Shown here piece by piece: positions 8,817 through 19,214 of a stretch of 64,000 bases of DNA; the first letter of the stretch is position 1; the number at the start of each line of letters is the position of its first letter. The DNA is from Paramecium tetraurelia. Lineage: Eukaryota. The stretch is from NCBI GenBank assembly GCA_000165425.1, contig CT868219.1, forward strand, positions 438,728-502,727. Reading direction: 5' to 3'. The translations under genes were made by a program, and so were the position numbers. The notes under the pieces are model-generated. The model saw only the letters and a list, made by a program, of their open reading frames with translations. It made no database searches and had not been told where the DNA came from.

Positions 8817-11800
8817 ATGTAATAAGAAGCAGATTATGTAAATATTCATTTATATTTATTTAGAATTAAGATGAAAAATAAGTATACTAACTGAGGTAGT
8901 AAATTATTTGTTACAAGCAAGTTTAAAGGTAAGATTGAAAGTAACCATATAGAAATCACCACATAGAAAATGAAAAATTAATGTTTCCATACAGCAAAGA
9001 CTAGTGGGAGGCAGAAAGGGAAAAGATATTCCAGAATTCGATTCAATATTTTCATGACAAAATCGATAAAAATGAGGAACTAAAATCCATTTTTAGAGAC
9101 CGATACCCAAAGCTTAAATTGGATCAGACTTGTGATGTATAGTCTTTGATATGATATCCTTAGGATATGTCTTTATTTAGTGAACGAATGCAAGGGTATC
9201 TAGAAAAGAGGAGATCGGATATAGAATAGGAGCTAAAGAAAACCCACCAAAATGATCCAAAATATGTGAGTTTGAAAATTGAATTACTGTTTATAAATTC
9301 AAAGGAATTTTATTTGAAAGTTAAAGAGTCTATCTTGAATCCATTATTGTAGGAAGAAAATTAGGCAGTATTGTAATCAAGGATGCTGGAAAGATTATTA
9401 TTAGATAGAAATTATTTTAAAAGAGACAAGCCTTAGAGAAGGGCAGAGAGCAAGTTGTCAGACAAATTTGAATTAAGTATGATACGACACGAATAGGCAA
9501 GAAGGAAGAAGATAAAATAAAAAGAGTTCATGTCAGCAATATTTGCACATCAGATTGAGTTTATGGAATTTCATAGAAAGAAATACAAACATGCTAGAAA
9601 ACGAAGTGTTTAGTTTAAGGTTGTATTGGAATAAAGAGAATAATAAAGAGATAAACAGATGAGAATGGAGCACATCCGAAGAGGAAATCTAGAAACTTAT
9701 ATTTAAGTTTTGGAGAAGTTGGATGAGGCTAAAAAAGAGAGAGTAGTTTCCATTTTGAGATAAACAGATCAATTTTTAAAAGATATAGGGGCGAGAGTGA
9801 AGATTTAAAAGGGTGAAGAAATTATGGAGGAAGATGAAGTCATTGAAAATATGAATTCGAGCAATGGTTTGGGGTATGAATTAAGTTAAGCTAATAAAGT
9901 ATATTATAATATAACTCATAAAATAAAAGAAGTAATAACACAATAGCCAACATTATTGGAAGGAGGATAATTGAAATAATATTAATTATAAGGATTAGAT
10001 TGGTTAGTAAGTTTGTATAATAACAATTTGAATGGTATTTTGGCTGATGAAATGGGTTTGGGTAAGACAATCCAAACAATCTCTCTCTTATGTTATTTGA
10101 TAGAAATAAAAAAGAATTTTGGACCATATTTCATTATTGTACCTTTATCAACTTTGAGTAATTGGTCCAATGAATTTGAGAAATGGGCTCCCTCAATTAA
10201 AAAAATTACTTATAAGGGTTCTCCTTAAATAAGAAAGGAAATATCAAAATAAATGAGAACAACTAAATGGAACATATGTCTAACTACTTATGAATACGTA
10301 TTAAAGGACAAGTTAACTTTATCAAAATATGAATGGAAATACATAATAGTTGATGAAGGACATAGGATGAAAAATTCAAGAAGCAAATTCGCAATGATCT
10401 TAGGATAGTAATATCAAAGTGAAAGAAGATTATTACTTACAGGAACACCATTACAAAATAATATTGCCGAATTGTGGGCTTTATTGAATTTCTTGTTACC
10501 AAAAGTGTTTTCATCTTGTGAAGACTTTGAAAAATGGTTCTAAACTCCATTAAACATAATGGGAGCAAGCGAGAAGGATATTTAATTAGATGAAGAAGAA
10601 TAATTACTTATTATTAATAGATTGCATTAAGTGCTTAGACCATTCTTATTAAGAAGAGTTAAAAAGGACGTAGAGAAAGAATTGCCTAGAAAAACAGAAT
10701 ATGTTATTAAGATAAAGTTATCAGCTTGGCAAAAGAAAATATATGACTAAATTAATTAAAGAGGAGTTATGACCTTTGATTAATAATCAGGGAAGAGTGG
10801 ATCTTAAGCATTATAGAACTTGATGATGTAATTAAGAAAGATTTGTAATCATCCCTATCTATTTATGTTGAATTTGGATATGAATAGAGTCACAGATGAA
10901 ATTTGGAGATCCAGTGGAAAATTTGAGTTATTGGATAGAATTATACCTAAATTGTTATACTTTAAACATAGATTACTAATATTTAGTTAAATGACATAAT
11001 TAATGGATATAATGGAAGCATTTTTTGAGTATAGAGGATGGAGATATTTGAGATTGGATGGATCAACTAAATCAGAAGATAGAGAATCTAGAATTCAATT
11101 GTTTAATTAAGAAAATTCAATCTATAATATCTTCTTATTAAGTACAAGAGCTGGTGGATTGGGATTGAATCTATAATCTGCAGATACCGTTGTATTATTT
11201 GATAGTGATTGGAATCCAATGATGGATTTATAAGCATAAGACAGAGCGTATAGAATTGGATAAAAAAATGAGGTTAGAGTACTCAGATTGATTACAGCTA
11301 CATAAATTGAAGGGAATATTCTCAGTAAGGCTGAACACAAAATGGGGTTGGATGCGGTTATCATTTAAGCAGGATTGTATAATTAAAGATCAACTGATCA
11401 AGAAAGAAGGGAACGCTTACAAGATTTCTTTAGACAAAAGAATAAAGTGGACTTGTTTGAAGCAGAAGAGATTCCTGATGATACTTAAATTAATGAATGG
11501 ATAGCAAGAAGTGAAGAAGAATTTGAGATGTTTAATGAATTGGATAGATAGAGGTATGAACAAGAAAAATTGATTTATAAAAACTTTAATGAGAACAAGG
11601 ATGATCAATATTATAATTATAGATTAATTTAAGATGATGAAGTTCCAGAATGGATTACATCTAAATAAAATGAAGTTCAGGAGGTTAAAGAGTATGGCAG
11701 AGGTTAAAGAGAAAGGAAATAAGTTGTTTATTACCTTCCTGAAGCCTCTCCAATCCTGGAAGAATAATAAGATGATATGAATGAATTAGATTTTAAAATG

Positions 11801-11968
11801 GATGATTAAATAGATATTGAATAAAACCAAGTGTTTTAAGATGATCTTGATTTACCAAAAATCTAGAGAAAAACAAAAAAATTAAGATAAGTAGATAACG
11901 ATGAAGGCAACAGTAATAATTTTGATGAAAATGAACCAAAACTAAAAAGTAAACGTAAACTTAATTGA
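8817..11968 (+). CDS. BRG1: SWI/SNF chromatin-remodelling ATPase (BRG1/Snf2 ortholog): QLQ, HSA, SNF2 helicase, SnAC, no bromodomain
   Basis: QLRQQIICYKQVQRN (QLQ), HSA/post-HSA helix, [62 protein letters not shown], and RLIQDDEVPEW..EYGRGQRERK (SnAC). Confidence 0.92.
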
Positions 11969-13166: not shown

Positions 13167-14727
13167 TCAATCCCTTTTACTCTTTGTGTTTTTATTAGCT
13201 TTTTAAGGGTTGTCAGAAGGCATTCCTTTAAACATATTTTATATTTTCTTGTCCATTTCTGAGTAAATTTTTCTCATTGCCACCATAAATAATATGAAAA
13301 CACCTCCCATAATTGTTATTGTTAAAATCAGATTTTAATAATATCTAGCTCTTCTCTCAAACATCAGATCTATTGAATTGACAGAACTTGACACTTTTCC
13401 AAATGTATTTATTAAAGCAACCAATTCATTTCTTTTCAACTTTCCTGAAAATTCACTTGGAGATTCAGAAAATAGAATTTTTAATGCTGTTCCTAATCCA
13501 TAAGTCTACATCTTTCCAAATACTCTACATTTTTGACATTCCACACAATCCATGATTTTACTTATGTTGTGAATATATCTTTGATAATCTTTCTTTTAAT
13601 CCTAACAATAATAATGTTTAATAAATTACGAATGTTATTTAATTGAAGAATTATTATTCATCAAAAGGTTTAGAACATTAACTATTACCTAGAGATAAGA
13701 TGGTGTTCAATAAATATTTGGATCTAGTATCTTCTTCAAAAGACATTGAATTTATATCATGTTTTTGAATTCCTGGAGATGCTAATATGACTGCCCTTAA
13801 AAGAACAGAATATATAAAGAACAAGTTTCGAATTCTTTCAGGATGATTACCTACTCTTTCGAAATATAATGAATAATTTGGGTAGGTTCTATTTGTTGAT
13901 AAATCAACATAAAACTCACTCAACTAAGTCGAAATCGAAGTATGCAATCCCTACACTAATTTATTCAATGCTCGCTTCTCCCTACACATTTCATTTAATG
14001 AACCTTAGTAACAGTTTTCTTTATATATAACATCCCAAATGTGTTGTCCTTAGTATCCTGTATAGGCTTCAGGATTTAATTTCAAATCAACATAGACACC
14101 CTTGTCATTTTCGATATCTTCAACATGCCATATCCATTCAGATGGAGCTACAACTCATGAATGAAATTACATAGATATCTTTCTGAATCCCAGAATGCAA
14201 AATCATCTTTTGGCTAACTTATTGGAGAGGATACTGGGGCCAACCAATTGGATGGAATCTTGAATATATTAACCTTATTACTTCTGAGGTGTTACAAGTG
14301 CAAATTACACATTTTCTACTTGTGCAAATGTATTCCCCAATAGAGAATGGACAATCATTTTCTAAATTGACTCTGAAGATCTTAAAATATTTTTTGTACT
14401 ATAAATTCGATCCTTATTTTTACAGTCAATTCATCCAATAGAGGGAATATTTGATCATTCACTGATTTGAGAGTTTGAAAGTCTTAACAGCTATCCTCAA
14501 CAATTCCTTCATATTTAAAGCCTTTTTCCAACTAATTGTTTGATAGCTTTAATTACTAATATGTAGTTCAATCCTGTTATAATTATTCCTGCTACGTATG
14601 CATAAATCAACCAAGAGATGCATTTCCCCATCATCTTTAATTCCCATTCTTTTCTTTGTCTTCTTTTAGCTCTCTCTATTTTCAATTAAGTGAGTTCGTC
14701 TACAATCTCATCTTACCCTCTTTACAT
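13167..14727 (-). CDS. ERO1: ER oxidoreductin 1 with predicted N- and C-terminal transmembrane anchors
   Basis: Shuttle [42 protein letters not shown], and active-site [29 protein letters not shown]. Confidence 0.93.
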
Positions 14728-15075
14728 TATAAAGTAATTATAATTTATATTTAATTAATTTTAGTTTCAATCTAAATCTAAATCTATATACACGTATGAT
14801 AAATAAGGAATCTCAAATAATTCTAAATGAAATATTTAAGATTCCTTATGCTGTTAAATTTTGATAATATCAATTTGCATTACTATTAATAATTTAGGTA
14901 TTTGTTGTATTAGAAAAGAGAGGAAAACTACAAAGAAATTCAATATTATGGTAATCAATTTGAAGGGTTTTAAAGTTTCAGTTACATTAGATTTAATCTG
15001 TTGATTACAAAAGACTACTCATAATAATAATTGATACTTTTGATTGTGATTACTTATAAATAATTACAATTTAAT

Positions 15076-17042
15076 ATGTTGGCTTCAAGATCTGATTCTC
15101 AATTAAGAAGTCTTGAAAATCCAGATAAATAAACGATGAGAGGAGAATCTTCCAAAAGAAGTGATAAATTGCTTGAAATTCCAAGAAAAAAGCTCAATAT
15201 GAGGTTATTGTTTTTATTACAGTTAGGCTGTATACTGAGCAGGAACAAAAGATTTAGAATTTAATTAATTCTAAAACAGTTACAATTAGTATTATTGCAT
15301 TGGTCGGAATATATGCAATTTTAATTTTTGTTATTGTAGCTTTAGAGGAATTGATGGATGAGACATAATTCAACAATGTGTCTGTAATACTGAGTTGGAT
15401 AGAATTAGGAATCCTAATTGTTTTCATTTTAGAAATAGCAGTTGGTTTATATGCATGGGGTGTGATGGTAAGTATTAAAAAATAAATTAGAAATATTACA
15501 AAGATAAATGGTTGATTTTGGATACTCTCATTATATTATTGTCTCTCTTTTTTGTGATCTTTGAATTGGCAGATTAGAAAACATCAAATGTAGTCAAAGT
15601 AATCTAGGCTGTATTTCGATTTTTACGAATATTTCTACTTATAAGAAAGGCTTAAACTTTCAGAAGACTCTCAACAATGTCTACTATCTCTACACCAGCT
15701 GAAAAGATTGTCCGATTCTTATCAGAATTGAAAGAAGTGATCGAACTTGAAAGTATGAAATTAGATATCGATTATTGCATTGATAAAATAGGTAACAACT
15801 AATTGTATTAAATGGGAAAGTTGGATGATGATAATGCTGAAGTAAATGCTGAATATAATATAGGCTATGGGTTGGTTGAATCAAAGTCAATAGGGTAAAA
15901 GTAGTGTGAGGAAAATTGTCACAGTTGAATAACAATAGTAACAGAAAAAAGTACTAGCCAACTTTTAAAGATTGAACATTCCCAAAAGAGTAATCATTTG
16001 CAATATGTTATTAGGTGCTAGAACTGTTAGACAAATAACATGATGATTTATATATTGATCCATTTGAGTGTGACAAATTAAGTGGAGGGGAAGGTTTGGT
16101 GTATTTAATGTTGTTTCTCTTTGAAAATTACAATCTCTATGATGTGTTCTTGATTAAACCCAAAGTTGTCAGAAGTTATTTCGAGGAAGTAATGAGGGGA
16201 TATCAAGACAACCCATATCATAATAGAGTGCATGCATAAGATGTGGCATAAACATGCAATTTTTTGTTGAATAGATGCAAATTTATTGAGATTGGCTAAT
16301 TAGATGAATAAGATATAGCTTGTGTTCTAATTGCAGGTGCCATTCATGACTATGGACATCCTGGTCTAACGAATGCCTTTCTTATTAATAGTAAAAATGA
16401 GTTAGCATTAACTTACAACGATTAAAGCGTTTTGGAAATGTTTCATCCATCCTAATGCTTCAAAATCGCTTGGACAAACCAGAAAGCAAATATCTTTGAA
16501 AGTCTGACATTTCAAAAATACAGAAGGATTAGAGAATCTATTATCTCGATGGTTTTATCCACTGACATGGCTCATCATGCTTCTGAATTAGCCATAACCA
16601 ATAGTAGAGTGGCAGCACGTAAGTTATGTTGTGAATTTAGCCGACTTTGAACCATACGGGAAGGATAAACAAAGATTAATGGATTTGGTTGTTCATTCTT
16701 CAGATGTATCAAATCCAACTAAAAGCTTTGAAATCTACAAGTAGTGGACAGAGAGAGTTCTGACAGAGTTTTGGTTACAGGGAGATAAAGAACGAGAACT
16801 CGGCTTGCCTATCTCCTATCTTTGCAATAGATATACAACCAACATGGCAGAGGCCTAACTGGGGTATTTAAACTAATCATATTAGCTTTATTGATTATGT
16901 GGTCAAACCAACATTTTCTTGTGTTCAGGGTTTTCTTCCAGCTTTTGAGCCTTATCTCGAAAATCTAGATAAGAATAAGGCTAAATGGCAAGAACTTGTT
17001 GGGTACTACAAACAATAATTGGCCTCCATTTAAACTTAATGA
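15076..17042 (+). CDS. voltage-sensor-domain (S1-S4)-fused class I 3',5'-cyclic nucleotide phosphodiesterase
   Basis: Six tiny introns keep one frame. Four TM helices end in S4 AVFRFLRIFLLIRK. PDE motifs: YQDNPYHNRVHAQDV, AIHDYGHPGLTNAFL, LSTDMAHH, HSSDVSNPTK, EFWLQGDKERELGL, AQLGFIDYVVKP. Confidence 0.9.
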
Positions 17043-17378
17043 TTAATAGATAAATATTTAATAATTTTATAATCTATATAAATTAACTTCCCTTTAATTA
17101 AAATGAATAATTTGGAAATTAAATGTTATCTTATGAAATGTTAATTTGGGAATATATGCTTAAATAATCACATGTACTCTTGTATATATCAATTTTGTTA
17201 TGATCAACAAATAGATTAGTAGATACCTATAGTTAATTGATATACTGTTGTAAAAATATTTGAATGTGAGTTAAGTTTAATCTTTTGGAATAAAATGCCA
17301 ATGTTCTACTAATTATATCAATCATCTAAAGAATAAAGATATTAACTATATGGTATTAATTAATTTATCTAATAATTA

Positions 17379-19214
17379 ATGAATTTTGAAGATAAATAAA
17401 ATGACAGGCTATACAAAAATAGATTCTATATAAAGCATAAGATCAGTGCAGGTACTTTTTGAAACTGGTTTAACTTTTGTAAGGTTCATTTGGGGTTGTA
17501 TTCTTATGTTAAGATCTGCAGACCAAAGAATATGTGGCAATGAAAGTGGAGAAGGAAGACACCAATTCAATGAGTTTGGAAAGGGAAATCTAAATGTTAG
17601 ATGAATTAAAAAAGCTTCCAGGTTAGAAATTTGCTAAAATAGGGATTCCAAAAATAATATGGGCAGGAAATGAGCATAATCATAATTGTTTGGTGATGCA
17701 ATTGCTAGGCAGAGATTTATCCTACCATTTAAAGGCTTTAAAAAGGTTTTCATTGAAATGCGTTGTCAATATATCACTGCAAATAATATAAATAATTGAA
17801 GGTGTGCATAAGAAGTACTTATAAATTCATATAATTTGACAGAGGAATAATTCATAGAGACATGAAGCCAGAAAATGTAATGACTGGAAAAGATCAAGAA
17901 TCAAACTAAATCTTTTTAGCTGATTTTGGAATTGCCAAATTTTACAGAGAACCAGATGGAACCCATGTGTACATTATCTCCCATAATAGAAATAAATATC
18001 AGACCCTTCAAAGACAATAAATCCTTTGTTGGCACAACCAGATATGCAAGCATTGGAGCACACAGAGGATTTGAATTGAGTAGAAAAGATGATCTAGAAT
18101 CAATTGGATATATGATTGTCTACATGTACAAAGGAACCCTGCCTTGGTAAACCTATCATAACGTCGCAGAGAAGGAAAAGACTAAAATGGTTGGTTAGAT
18201 CAAATAATAAACATCATTAGAAGAATTGTGTAAGGATTGTCCTTAAGAATTTTATTAGTAACTCTCATTCATATTCATATGTAGATATTTTCATTATGTA
18301 AAACAATTGTAATACAAATCTACTCCTGATTATAGATATTTACATTCCTTATTTGAGTAAATATCTATAAACAATGGATTTAAACATGATAAAAGGCTTG
18401 ACTGGACTGAATTCTCTCAAGGAACCACTAAAATCTCAGGAGAATAGACCCAACAAGAAACAAAACAACCAGTTAGGTCTTCTAGATAAGATGATAAATT
18501 TAAAAATGTTGACTACATTCCATCGAAAAGGTACATATTTTATTTAATTATCAGATCCGATATTAATAATTTACAAAAAGCAATTAATAGTAATAGGAAT
18601 AGAAGTAGACATCAATCAGAATAATGTGTCAATAAAAGTAATAACAGTGGAAATAGTTTCTCATCTTCATATATCAATAGTTAGCAATCTTCAATTCTTT
18701 TAAACTATTAAAACTCATAATTTTCTCAAAATAATATTAGAATAGGATCCTCAAAACTACTTAGCAAATTATAAGAAAGGGGAATCATCAGTTTACATCA
18801 GGATTCTAAAGGATCTCTAATTTAATAGCAATCTTCTAAATCATTTCATGAAAGACACATGTCCTCTCACTTATAATAGTAATTAATTCCTCAATAGCAG
18901 CAGTCATTTCATAACAATAGTTAGATCATGCAACTCTAATAAGAAGACTTTTAAGATCTGGAGGAACTTGAAGAAAGATTAAAAAATGATAAAAAGTCTA
19001 AGTAAAATATACATTAATCAAGAGTTAACGAAATTAGGCTCATAAAAGCAACAAACCATTAAAAGTCAAAGAAATTCAAAATCATTTTAAGCAACCTGAT
19101 AACTAAACTGATTTGTAAGGAATGACATAATTAGAAGAAGCAAGCATCGAAAACAAGCTATAAAACTACACTTCTTATGCTCCAAAATTAAAACAAAACT
19201 TAGCTAAATATTGA
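17379..19214 (+). CDS. CK1: casein kinase 1 family Ser/Thr kinase with Q/S/N-rich tail
   Basis: ISAGSFGVV, VAMKVE, LVMQLLG, IHRDMKPEN, ADFGIAK, FVGTTRYASIGAHRGFELSRKDDLES, GTLPWQ. Confidence 0.92.

Follow-up and report, generated by a model that had tools for sequence, protein, structure and literature searches.

Direct control of an enzyme by an S4-type sensor is, to our knowledge, established for one family only, the voltage-sensing phosphatases. In Ci-VSP and the TPTE family, a pore-less S1-S4 domain and a basic stretch past S4 precede a cytosolic enzyme, a PTEN-like phosphatase with a C2 domain whose substrate is a membrane lipid. Membrane modules are also found fused to enzymes of cyclic nucleotide metabolism. 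In choanoflagellate Rh-PDE the sensor is a light-driven rhodopsin, which a helical linker connects with a class I phosphodiesterase (PDE) dimer, and the ion-channel-like adenylyl cyclases of ciliates and apicomplexans (Paramecium AC, Plasmodium AC-alpha), tied to hyperpolarisation-evoked cAMP, combine a channel-like module described with six transmembrane (TM) helices and a class III cyclase domain. In passages of one voltage-sensor review, Hv1, TMEM266, SLC9C1 and the voltage-sensing phosphatases are taken as pore-less sensor proteins; the words phosphodiesterase and cyclase are absent from the searched passages of two recent reviews on the subject.

The Pfam pair formed by a partial PF00520 and a C-terminal PF00233 has been reported in Toxoplasma gondii, for TgPDE4 and TgPDE16 by Moss et al. 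2022 (PMC8809380) and, as Ion_trans plus PDE, for TgPDE4 by Vo et al. 2020 (PMC7720076). Both papers connect the Ion_trans domain with 'ion transport' or 'cation channels'; 'voltage' as a word is found 0 times in their main texts, and the passages on these two proteins report no voltage experiment. In those passages the precedent is thus known as a domain pair and read as ion transport, not as a voltage sensor.

We examined a locus on the plus strand at 15076..17042 of the window, a 64,000-nucleotide stretch of Paramecium tetraurelia contig CT868219.1, which encodes a pore-less S1-S4 sensor domain fused to a class I PDE. The original prediction, made from the letters of the sequence, had joined both domains in one ORF after removal of six tiny introns, and this holds. 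The coding region consists of 7 exons and 6 introns (609 codons plus TGA in the ciliate code) and corresponds to GSPATT00011621001 / XP_001443417.1 / A0CZ03. Splicing leaves a 1830-nt ORF (table 6) with 25 TAA/TAG Gln codons and one TGA, at its end, whose 609-aa product matches the annotated protein (database protein P0001) over its 609 C-terminal residues with zero mismatches. All six introns are 22-25 nt long and run GT..AG. Once intron 1 (15204..15226, 23 nt, GTT..TAG) is excised, the frame is open again and the translation agrees with the database protein; intron 2 (15468..15490, 23 nt) lies in the S2-S3 loop, introns 3 (15842..15863, 22 nt) and 4 (15990..16014, 25 nt) follow, intron 5 (16619..16640, 22 nt) falls within the PDE domain and intron 6 (16864..16885, 22 nt) directly after its invariant Gln, all on the plus strand. 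In the P. bursaria model P0003, intron 2 is apparently retained in frame. A P. octaurelia protein, also of 609 aa, is 98.5% identical to the spliced product.

Transcription of the locus was seen in two oligo-dT RNA-seq runs with 25 and 29 reads, the first mate being on the minus strand in all of them. Within 14787-17300 the reads were confined to bins 15048-17048 and covered both domains. A check of the spliced mRNA had been proposed, and its outcome was divided: same-orientation reads span both domains, and the listed splice joints number 0, these reads being too few. Two contig sets of unspecified kind (X3, X7) each place 2 records on the locus, with no joint listed.

Public annotation calls A0CZ03 'Phosphodiesterase' and nothing more, and both Pfam domains already stand on its database record. 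The claim that no enzyme of this architecture had been characterised hence survives in one respect and not in another. A literature search, with subscription-only papers and supplementary tables (e.g. ciliary membrane proteomes) outside it, found no characterised voltage-regulated PDE and no paper naming the gene identifiers of this protein; the domain pair itself was already in databases and reported for TgPDE4/TgPDE16.

We then considered the membrane part. In the profile check suggested with the original prediction, Pfam matched Ion_trans (PF00520) with E 4.7e-12 and 46.1 bits (cut-off 25), over profile positions 10-122 of 241, and PDEase_I (PF00233) with E 2.8e-78 and 263.3 bits over the full profile (1-238 of 238); apart from a weak sub-threshold FKS1_dom2 match, no other family was hit. 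The S3-S4 exon by itself scored 28.2 bits to Ion_trans, and human TPTE2 was among its weak sequence matches (E 0.38). A hydropathy scan gave four TM segments in total and none after S4. A six-TM voltage-gated cation channel was thus rejected, S5-pore-S6 being absent and the Ion_trans match stopping at 122/241. The even number of TM segments would place the PDE in the cytosol.

The four helices, all read on the plus strand, carry voltage-sensor residues, whose conservation we followed in 41 relatives mostly 26-39% identical to the query (mean column identity 18%). S1 (15285..15344, residues 63-82) has Tyr72, a Tyr in 31/41 members, at the position of the Hv1 selectivity Asp. In S2 (15384..15458, residues 96-120) we found the outer acidic E102 (acidic in 38/41), F109 (Phe in 35/41) and E112 (Glu/Asp in 37/41), and in S3 (15506..15568, residues 129-149) W130 and the countercharge D134 (Asp/Glu in 40/41); F109, E112 and D134 make a complete charge-transfer centre. 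S4 with its cytosolic basic extension (15590..15670, residues 157-183) bears R166, R169, R175 and K176 in register, with Leu at 172, then R181 and R182. In a sequence comparison of the S3-S4 exon, the S4 charges align in register with those of Cav3 domain II S4. R169 is present in all 41 aligned members, the R166 position is R/K in 37/41, and the third S4 position is hydrophobic in 40/41. Buried charges conserved this strictly would be unexpected for a mere anchor. With just three Arg and one Lys and a hydrophobic third position, the charge movement of this S4 may be small.

Structural comparison used orthologue models (87% and about 50% identity to the window's protein) and pointed in the same direction. 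The full-length orthologue model has a pLDDT of 84 overall, 85-93 in the sensor and >94 in the PDE. In the proposed fold check, the best match of the sensor part was the Ci-VSP sensor (Z 13.2, rmsd 3.2 A, 131/136 residues, 18% identity; orthologue model), followed by Cav, Nav, CatSper and TPC sensors, and at least 15 of the top 20 structural rows were, by title, channel or VSP sensors. Foldseek likewise ranked Ci-VSP 1, with a best E of 0.17 and zero matches at E <= 0.001. Against this sensor model, designed four-helix bundles score as high as Z 11.5, so the fold score alone is weak evidence. A search of the ESM Atlas with residues 45-232 gave a best score of 0.79, under the meaningful level. 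Together with the Ion_trans match, the four TM segments and the residue conservation, these results support the predicted pore-less module as a true voltage-sensor-type domain, in which charges may move with membrane potential.

Hv1 and TMEM266 are pore-less S1-S4 proteins as well, and the best PDB sequence match of the P. bursaria orthologue's N-terminal part is the mouse Hv1 chimera 3wkv (HMMER, E 0.0032). In this alignment the orthologue has Tyr at the S1 Asp position, where 38/41 members have Tyr, Phe or Trp. The Hv1 motif RxWRxxR was sought in S4 and is absent; S4 reads FRFLRIFLLIRK. What comes after S4 is, in addition, a PDE and not a coiled coil. Both arguments that the original prediction had raised against a proton channel, the Tyr and the missing motif, were thus borne out, and an Hv1 identity was rejected on them.

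The protein is not an isolated case. Of the 100 best 50%-identity representatives that we tested, 33 have both Pfam domains, among them proteins of the ciliates Tetrahymena, Ichthyophthirius and Protocruzia and of the dinoflagellate Oxyrrhis, which answers the proposed survey of ciliates and alveolates in the affirmative. In the MMETSP transcriptomes, Protocruzia and Oxyrrhis ORFs carry both domains on whole transcripts, and full-length single ORFs are found in six Paramecium species. Ion_trans scores above the gathering threshold in 32 of these 33 members, and all 33 matches end at profile positions 104-125, a common pore-less truncation. The family was collected by exhaustive protein search; a word-indexed search of the sensor part reached Paramecium only, and a profile search was dominated by PDE4/PDE1. 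Its size, counted in clusters at 50% identity, is at least 50 among the 149 best relatives.

We placed 156 catalytic domains on a quick FastTree, which raised a single long-branch warning (P0008 with P0038) and whose outgroup does not form one side of a branch. For the 96 rows whose state could be defined, presence of the sensor requires at least 7 changes on this tree; the sensor thus appears as a swappable module. Bacterial and archaeal genomes contain 22 loci encoding relatives of the PDE domain, all aligned only from residue 292 on, and tblastn with 11 family N-terminal parts (codes 11 and 6, E <= 0.01) detected the sensor at 0/22 of them.

The catalytic core (Pfam span 16216..16967, plus strand, residues 350-585, introns 5 and 6 inside, the end extrapolated from residue 581 at 16955) contains every metal ligand and the invariant Gln that the original prediction had named. 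H351 and H355 stand in HNRVH (16219..16233), H393, D394 and H397 in HDYGH (16345..16359), and the metal-binding D505 in SSDVSN (16697..16714), these three plus-strand motifs being invariant in 41/41. The substrate-binding Gln556 (16856..16858, plus strand), Gln in at least 90% of the family, is encoded by TAA, which reads as Gln solely in the ciliate code. Compared with PDE4B/4D and PDE1B, the catalytic model gave a target-normalised TM of about 0.9 at 33-36% identity, and the family profile matched PDE4D at E 1.1e-125, PDE4B at about 1e-125 and PDE1B at about 1e-119. The nearest ranking (PDE4, PDE1, PDE8, PDE7) leans weakly to cAMP as the substrate, a sequence-based indication.

A homodimer model scored 0.80, the best control 0.00. 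The mark for this score was reached by 21/30 solved homodimers and 0/23 solved single chains (17/29 and 0/30 for eukaryotes). Dimer runs share at least 38% of contacts, partner pLDDT is >=82, and the interface (residues 412-466) lies in the catalytic domain only, being silent on a linker acting in trans. Solved PDE dimers exist, so this pass may reflect memory. The PDE domain (about 270-606) probably dimerises. This predicted catalytic dimer fits long-form PDE4 and PDE1, whose catalytic domains are the closest.

Between S4 and the enzyme lies a conserved two-helix linker module (15692..15808, plus strand, residues 191-229), reading TPAEKIVRFL... and ...LDIDYCIDKIGNNQLY. The family linker HMM matched 72/149 representatives, 24 of which lack the sensor domain, and some of the sensor-less proteins carry DEP, EF-hand or P-type ATPase parts; the module is therefore not a sensor-specific transducer. 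It is followed by a Gln-rich spacer of low confidence (15882..15950, plus strand; orthologue pLDDT < 50 at the matching residues 230-235 and 240-268). These ~40 low-confidence residues ahead of the catalytic domain argue against rigid mechanical coupling.

The linker had originally been likened to PDE8/PDE4-UCR2 regulatory helices, and for PDE4 this gained a faint signal from profile comparison and none from Pfam. Against the PDE4 upstream region, hhalign gave P 0.0033 and a probability of 9.8% over 39 columns, around DIDYCIDKI versus ELDWCLDQLE, where helix 2 of the linker weakly resembles the start of UCR2. The linker HMM reached the same UCR2 site in 8/10 PDE4 long forms, a ninth more weakly (E 0.1 to 3.3), and touched 2/10 PDE1 proteins (E 1.7-2.3). 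Pfam found no PDE4_UCR (PF18100) match in the protein at E <= 0.01 and no PDEase_I_N match. UCR2 homology may thus be regarded as a weak, sequence-level lead. Unlike long-form PDE4, the Paramecium protein is embedded in the membrane by its voltage-sensor domain.

The layout runs from a cytosolic N-terminus (1-62) through the S1-S4 sensor (63-183), the two-helix module (191-229) and the flexible Gln-rich spacer to the PDE (about 270-606). It shares with Ci-VSP the pore-less S1-S4, the basic stretch past S4 and the cytosolic enzyme, and its S4 pattern is R-x-x-R-x-x-hydrophobic-x-x-R-K. In contrast to Ci-VSP, the enzyme is a class I cNMP PDE with a predicted soluble substrate, and a two-helix module and flexible spacer intervene between S4 and catalysis. 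Identity as a voltage-sensing phosphatase was rejected, Pfam showing no PTEN-like phosphatase or C2; the protein may still work like one. With the channel-like cyclases it has in common the fusion of a channel-type membrane module to a cyclic-nucleotide enzyme, but it would hydrolyse rather than synthesise and has four TM helices without a pore. With Rh-PDE it shares the logic of a membrane sensor joined to a PDE, the sensor being S1-S4 instead of rhodopsin.

A simple model of this protein would involve S4 as the moving part. On a change of membrane potential, R166 and R169 would swap partners E112 and D134 across the hydrophobic plug F109; S4, which extends into the cytosol as a basic helix, would shift or rotate and move the two-helix module, and the latter would tune the accessibility or arrangement of the catalytic dimer. 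Breakdown of cAMP or cGMP near the membrane would then track membrane potential. Such coupling would be analogous to that of Ci-VSP and to the control of PDE4 by its upstream helices. As to polarity, one can only guess at greater activity at rest or on depolarisation. Ciliary cAMP of Paramecium rises on hyperpolarisation, as described in PMC10587447, and the enzyme might act as the degrading counterpart to this hyperpolarisation-driven rise, which speeds ciliary beating. We slightly favour the view that the sensor works as a real voltage sensor whose S4 extension sets PDE activity via the two-helix module, the gating being inferred from anatomy and conservation.

This preference was weighed against other readings of the same protein. 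S1-S4 could be a relic of a channel sensor that only tethers the PDE to the membrane of cilium, cortex or alveolar sacs, activity being set by phosphorylation, Ca2+/calmodulin or dimer state. Such an anchor would agree with a sensor that can be swapped between close PDE-domain relatives, the tree requiring at least 7 changes, with the same linker and PDE behind other N-termini, with the long flexible spacer ahead of the catalytic domain and with the reduced S4 charge count. In addition, 18/18 Toxoplasma PDEs are predicted to be membrane-associated in the relevant passage of PMC7720076, which would make anchoring a general alveolate theme. An anchor, however, needs no buried charges, yet R169, D134, E112 and F109 are kept in 41, 40, 37 and 35 of the 41 relatives, and Ion_trans stays above its gathering score in all but one of the 33 members; we regard mere tethering as unlikely. 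The sensor might also move with voltage while the fused enzyme is not its main output, the protein acting as an auxiliary subunit beside channels, by reverse coupling (cNMP-bound PDE shifting the sensor) or in response to lipid or pH. Further pore-less sensors exist, among them TMEM266, of unknown function, and SLC9C1, with two-way cAMP/voltage coupling (in a passage of PMC13095418), and the basic stretch past S4 could bind acidic lipids. Conservation of the PDE fusion across ciliates and a dinoflagellate, as well as of the S4-proximal linker, fits the enzyme as output instead, making this second reading rather improbable.

That the sensor itself conducts ions, by an Hv1-like proton path or an omega-type leak, and that the protein is hence a channel with an attached PDE, draws on the 3wkv match. 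The aromatic residue replacing the S1 Asp, the S4 without RxWRxxR and the conserved F109 plug speak against it, and we give conduction very little credence. An annotation artefact, namely two neighbouring genes or a pseudogene falsely joined through tiny introns, might be suspected from the absence of a listed splice joint at such low read numbers, from a P. bursaria gene model that ends after the linker and from a P. tetraurelia paralogue, drawn from protein clusters, whose annotation consists of a pair of neighbouring models, GSPATT00009583001 (303 aa) and GSPATT00009582001 (268 aa). This split, however, falls inside the PDE domain (residues 303-342 absent) and not between the domains. Moreover, the reading frame stays open between S1 and the end of the PDE across six canonical tiny introns, a single exon holds S3, S4 and linker, full-length single ORFs recur in the six Paramecium species and in the Protocruzia and Oxyrrhis transcriptomes, and one-orientation RNA reads cover S3 to the catalytic core in consecutive bins. 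An artefact is scarcely credible on these data, which confirm the fusion of sensor and class I PDE in one polypeptide.

Gating by the sensor would have wider consequences. The protein would be the first example of a second class of voltage-sensing enzymes beside the voltage-sensing phosphatases, an old family, widespread in alveolates, of PDEs whose cAMP/cGMP hydrolysis is set directly by an S4-type sensor. Paired with the channel-like adenylyl cyclase, it would let membrane potential govern the cyclic-nucleotide level of the cilium from two sides, synthesis and breakdown, as a push-pull circuit without Ca2+ or a G protein as intermediary; we put this broader proposal at slightly short of even chances. 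If true, electrical signalling would reach cyclic nucleotides by a route independent of Ca2+, and the enzyme would account in part for the shaping of the fast cAMP/cGMP transients governing ciliary beat in ciliates and offer a compact module, possibly a tool, for electrical control of cellular cAMP/cGMP.

The 'ion transport domain' of apicomplexan parasite PDEs would then also receive a new interpretation. TgPDE4 and TgPDE16, alveolate proteins like ours, were likened to the Paramecium protein by their reported domains, a partial PF00520 followed by a C-terminal PF00233, and not by their sequences. According to the passage on TgPDE4 in Vo et al. (PMC7720076), this protein bears many catalytic substitutions, and some proteins of the sensor-PDE architecture may accordingly be inactive.

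Reading positions 15076–17042 of the forward strand in the ciliate code and removing six introns of 23, 23, 22, 25, 22 and 22 nt (all GT..AG on the same strand, picked from a listing of candidate tiny introns) gave a 1830-nt frame of 609 residues, with 25 in-frame TAA/TAG codons and a single terminal TGA. The spliced protein was identical, letter for letter, to the last 609 residues of GSPATT00011621001 (XP_001443417.1, UniProt A0CZ03), named just 'Phosphodiesterase' in the database, and all motifs quoted in the original prediction were found in their places. The proposed combination of an S1–S4 domain and a PDE in one pore-less ORF was confirmed by Pfam and hydropathy. The whole protein matched Ion_trans at 46.1 bits (E 4.7e-12) over profile positions 10–122 of 241 only, that is S1–S4, and PDEase_I at 263 bits across the full profile. 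As single exons, the S3–S4 exon alone reached 28.2 bits for Ion_trans (cut-off 25) and exons 5–7 matched PDEase_I. A hydropathy scan gave four membrane segments, the last of them S4, S5-pore-S6 being absent; the even helix count places the enzyme in the cytosol, on the same side as the N-terminus. TAA (16856–16858) encodes the invariant Gln with which the PDE binds its substrate, so that a standard-code annotation would truncate the enzyme inside its active site.

The database model has 692 residues, with 83 extra upstream codons from an ATG at 14827 (14827–15075), a stretch that is AT-rich and open only through TAA/TAG read as Gln. This extension is probably spurious, because the orthologues of 609–612 residues begin with the residue that corresponds to the ATG at 15076 and because depth was absent at 14787–15047 in the RNA-seq runs X21 and X22. 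These two oligo-dT runs yielded 25 and 29 reads here, each 58 nt long, and the first mate lay on the minus strand in all reads of both, which fits a + strand mRNA under usual stranded protocols. Within 14787–17300 the reads were confined to bins 15048–17048. The expected spliced mRNA joining both domains was supported in part: one-orientation reads covered both domains, and in X22 there was depth in every bin between S3 (15483) and the catalytic core (16352), but no splice joint reached the listing threshold in either run.

We then compared the sensor with solved structures. The S3–S4 exon matched T-type calcium-channel sensors best (E 0.00069), followed by a Nav1.7 sensor chimera, with human TPTE2 a weak match. 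In the channel alignments R166, R169 and R175 fell on gating charges and L172 on a channel Lys. With the P. bursaria orthologue, the N-terminal part had its best solved match in the mouse Hv1 chimera 3wkv (E 0.0032). Across an alignment of 41 sequences with a mean column identity of 18%, the outer acidic position of S2 was D/E in 38, F109 was Phe in 35, E112 was E/D in 37 and D134 of S3 was D/E in 40. In S4, R/K occupied position 166 in 37 sequences and position 169 in all 41, position 172 was hydrophobic in 40, R175 was Arg in 30 and K176 was K/R in 33. The catalytic His and Asp were invariant in this alignment and the substrate Gln was present in at least 90%.

Structure models were built on orthologues rather than on the window's own protein. 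The full-length P. sonneborni model (87% identical, from a 41-sequence alignment) had a mean pLDDT of 84.2, with 85–93 in the sensor and above 94 in the catalytic domain; Foldseek returned the catalytic domains of PDE4B/4D and PDE1B (target TM about 0.9, 33–36% identity). A model of the 263-residue P. bursaria orthologue, which covers sensor and linker only (pLDDT 78), had no Foldseek match at E ≤ 0.001. The Ci-VSP sensor ranked first (E 0.17, target TM 0.66), and, judging by their titles, nearly all of the other matches listed were channels or transporters that carry a voltage sensor. An independent search of 48,161 chains also placed Ci-VSP first (Z 13.2, rmsd 3.2 Å over 131/136 residues, 18% identity), followed by the Cav1.2, Cav1.1, Nav1.5, CatSper, Nav1.7 and TPC sensors. 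This fold score is supportive, not decisive, because designed four-helix bundles reached Z 11.5 at 3–7% identity against the same model.

A homodimer model of residues 186–612 scored 0.80 versus 0.00 for the best control, its runs sharing at least 38% of contacts with a partner pLDDT of at least 82. In benchmarking, 21 of 30 solved homodimers reached this mark and none of 23 solved single chains did (17/29 and 0/30 for eukaryotes). Since PDE dimers are already solved, this pass may reflect memory. The predicted interface is formed by catalytic-domain residues 412–466; the model indicates likeness to dimeric PDEs and is uninformative on the linker.

In the P. sonneborni model the linker helices were found at 192–206 and 210–224, and 230–268 was largely of low confidence. 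The S4 helix runs on to about residue 185 and, after a short break, gives way to these two helices, which are conserved and follow the consensus PxExVxxxLxxL ... WxIxxIxSxxLY in the family. The same linker precedes related sensor-less PDEs, in DEP-PDE, EF-hand-PDE and P-type-ATPase-PDE proteins. This distribution suggests a regulatory element belonging to this PDE clade, into which different sensor modules plug. Examples carried the linker and a related PDE behind a P-type cation ATPase (1513 aa), two DEP domains or an EF-hand, the first recalling the P4-ATPase-guanylate cyclase fusions of alveolates. Likeness of the linker to PDE4 UCR2 appears weak: hhalign gave P 0.0033 and a probability of 9.8% over 39 columns, and Pfam found no PDE4_UCR in the protein. 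A linker HMM gave sub-significant matches in 9/10 PDE4 long forms, eight of them at one UCR2 site, and matched 2/10 PDE1 sequences. When the family profile was matched by HMMER to long-form PDE4B (4wzi, profile 157–598), the alignment did reach that enzyme's upstream region.

The sensor-PDE architecture is genuine and conserved, and it extends further than the original prediction could have known. When 1.84 billion representatives were searched exhaustively by HMMER with the P. sonneborni query, 14,576 matched at E ≤ 0.001, and many of the best 150 aligned in one stretch from residue about 30–70 to about 600. Among the first 100 of these, 33 carried both Ion_trans and PDEase_I by Pfam (32 over the gathering score), every Ion_trans match ending at profile position 104–125. 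With HMMs from our own alignment, 149 representatives gave the sensor in 50 (37 of them training sequences) and the linker in 72; 48 had both and 24 had only the linker. Named members come from Tetrahymena thermophila, Ichthyophthirius multifiliis, several Paramecium species, Protocruzia adherens and the dinoflagellate Oxyrrhis marina; many others are environmental sequences. A second copy in P. tetraurelia, GSPATT00006250001 (86% identical), is also intact, and a further Paramecium paralogue type is 35% identical. A third P. tetraurelia copy consists of the adjacent models GSPATT00009583001 (303 aa, 'Ion transport domain') and GSPATT00009582001 (268 aa, 'PDEase domain'). These span residues 1–302 and 343–610 of the intact copy, so that the split falls inside the PDE domain; on this sequence evidence we read the pair as a mis-split model or pseudogene. 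The P. bursaria model has 12 additional S2–S3 loop residues exactly at the position of intron 2, which looks like an intron retained in frame; ending ahead of the PDE domain, the model is probably incomplete.

We lean, slightly beyond an even chance, towards a voltage-regulated PDE, in which S4 movement would act via the linker on the dimeric catalytic domain. S4 would move across the F109 plug and displace its own cytosolic extension as well as the two-helix module, which would set access to, or geometry of, the dimeric catalytic domain. This reading of sequences and models is favoured because the buried charges are strictly conserved, the sensor fold and register are standard, and both fusion and linker are conserved. 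Counted against it are the few S4 charges, the flexible spacer, the sharing of the linker with sensor-less PDEs and the swappable nature of the sensor. A role of S1–S4 as an anchor only is unlikely, and a sensor with another output, or with reverse coupling, is more doubtful still. That the sensor itself conducts is very improbable: the Tyr held to argue against a proton channel was indeed seen at the Hv1 S1 Asp position in the alignment with 3wkv, and S1 Tyr72 was Tyr in 31/41 sequences. We give hardly any credence to an annotation artefact as the source of the fusion; the Protocruzia adherens and Oxyrrhis marina sequences come from transcriptomes, so in these species one mRNA carries both domains.

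The claimed novelty of the architecture appears to hold for its interpretation: no paper on a voltage-sensing, voltage-gated or voltage-dependent phosphodiesterase was found in the literature searched. The architecture itself is already on record, both domains being given in database entries and their combination having been noted in two papers on Toxoplasma. Moss et al. 2022 report a partial PF00520 together with PF00233 in Toxoplasma PDEs. Vo et al. 2020 (PMC7720076) call the cation-channel-like domain of TgPDE4 'an apparently exclusive feature', and 'voltage' is absent from the main texts of that paper and of Moss et al. 2022 (PMC8809380). The available part of a 2024 voltage-sensor review covers Hv1, TMEM266, SLC9C1 and VSPs with 0 occurrences of 'pde' or 'cyclase' (PMC13095418), and a 2025 review has 0 of 'phosphodiesterase', 'cyclase' or 'enzyme' (PMC13661669). 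A Paramecium review points out that P. tetraurelia has at least 40 PF00233 entries, without molecular characterisation (PMC9608856). Within the literature searched, neither the idea that a voltage sensor drives a PDE in these proteins nor the existence of a large alveolate family that keeps the sensor hallmarks appears to have been published. Sensor-PDE proteins would belong among sensor-coupled enzymes.

A FastTree of 156 catalytic domains, including four PDE4 and four PDE1 sequences, comprised 52 with the sensor, 44 that lack it although 250 or more residues lie upstream, and 60 whose N-termini are too short to judge. Sensor presence was clustered (18 changes versus a shuffled mean of 43.6) and did not form one clade, with at least 7 changes among the 96 judgeable sequences. 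We give this result little weight on sensor gain and loss because the tree was built quickly and carried a long-branch warning. In bacterial and archaeal genomes, 22 loci had PDE-domain relatives, a sensor being detectable in 0/22. The best matches in the prokaryote collection (35–36% identical to the query) lay on 'uncultured Clostridia' and 'Prevotellaceae' MAG contigs of 30–35% G+C, which may be eukaryotic (e.g. ciliate) DNA mis-binned into bacterial MAGs. On a Chlamydiales MAG contig, another class I PDE domain is encoded that shares 35% identity with the query, with no sensor detected upstream. In the window, three neighbouring genes look unrelated when their ORF translations are judged by eye: 9155–11968 (+) is SNF2-type ATPase-like, 13167–14154 (−) resembles an ERO1-like thiol oxidase and 17405–19125 (+) a casein-kinase-1-like kinase.
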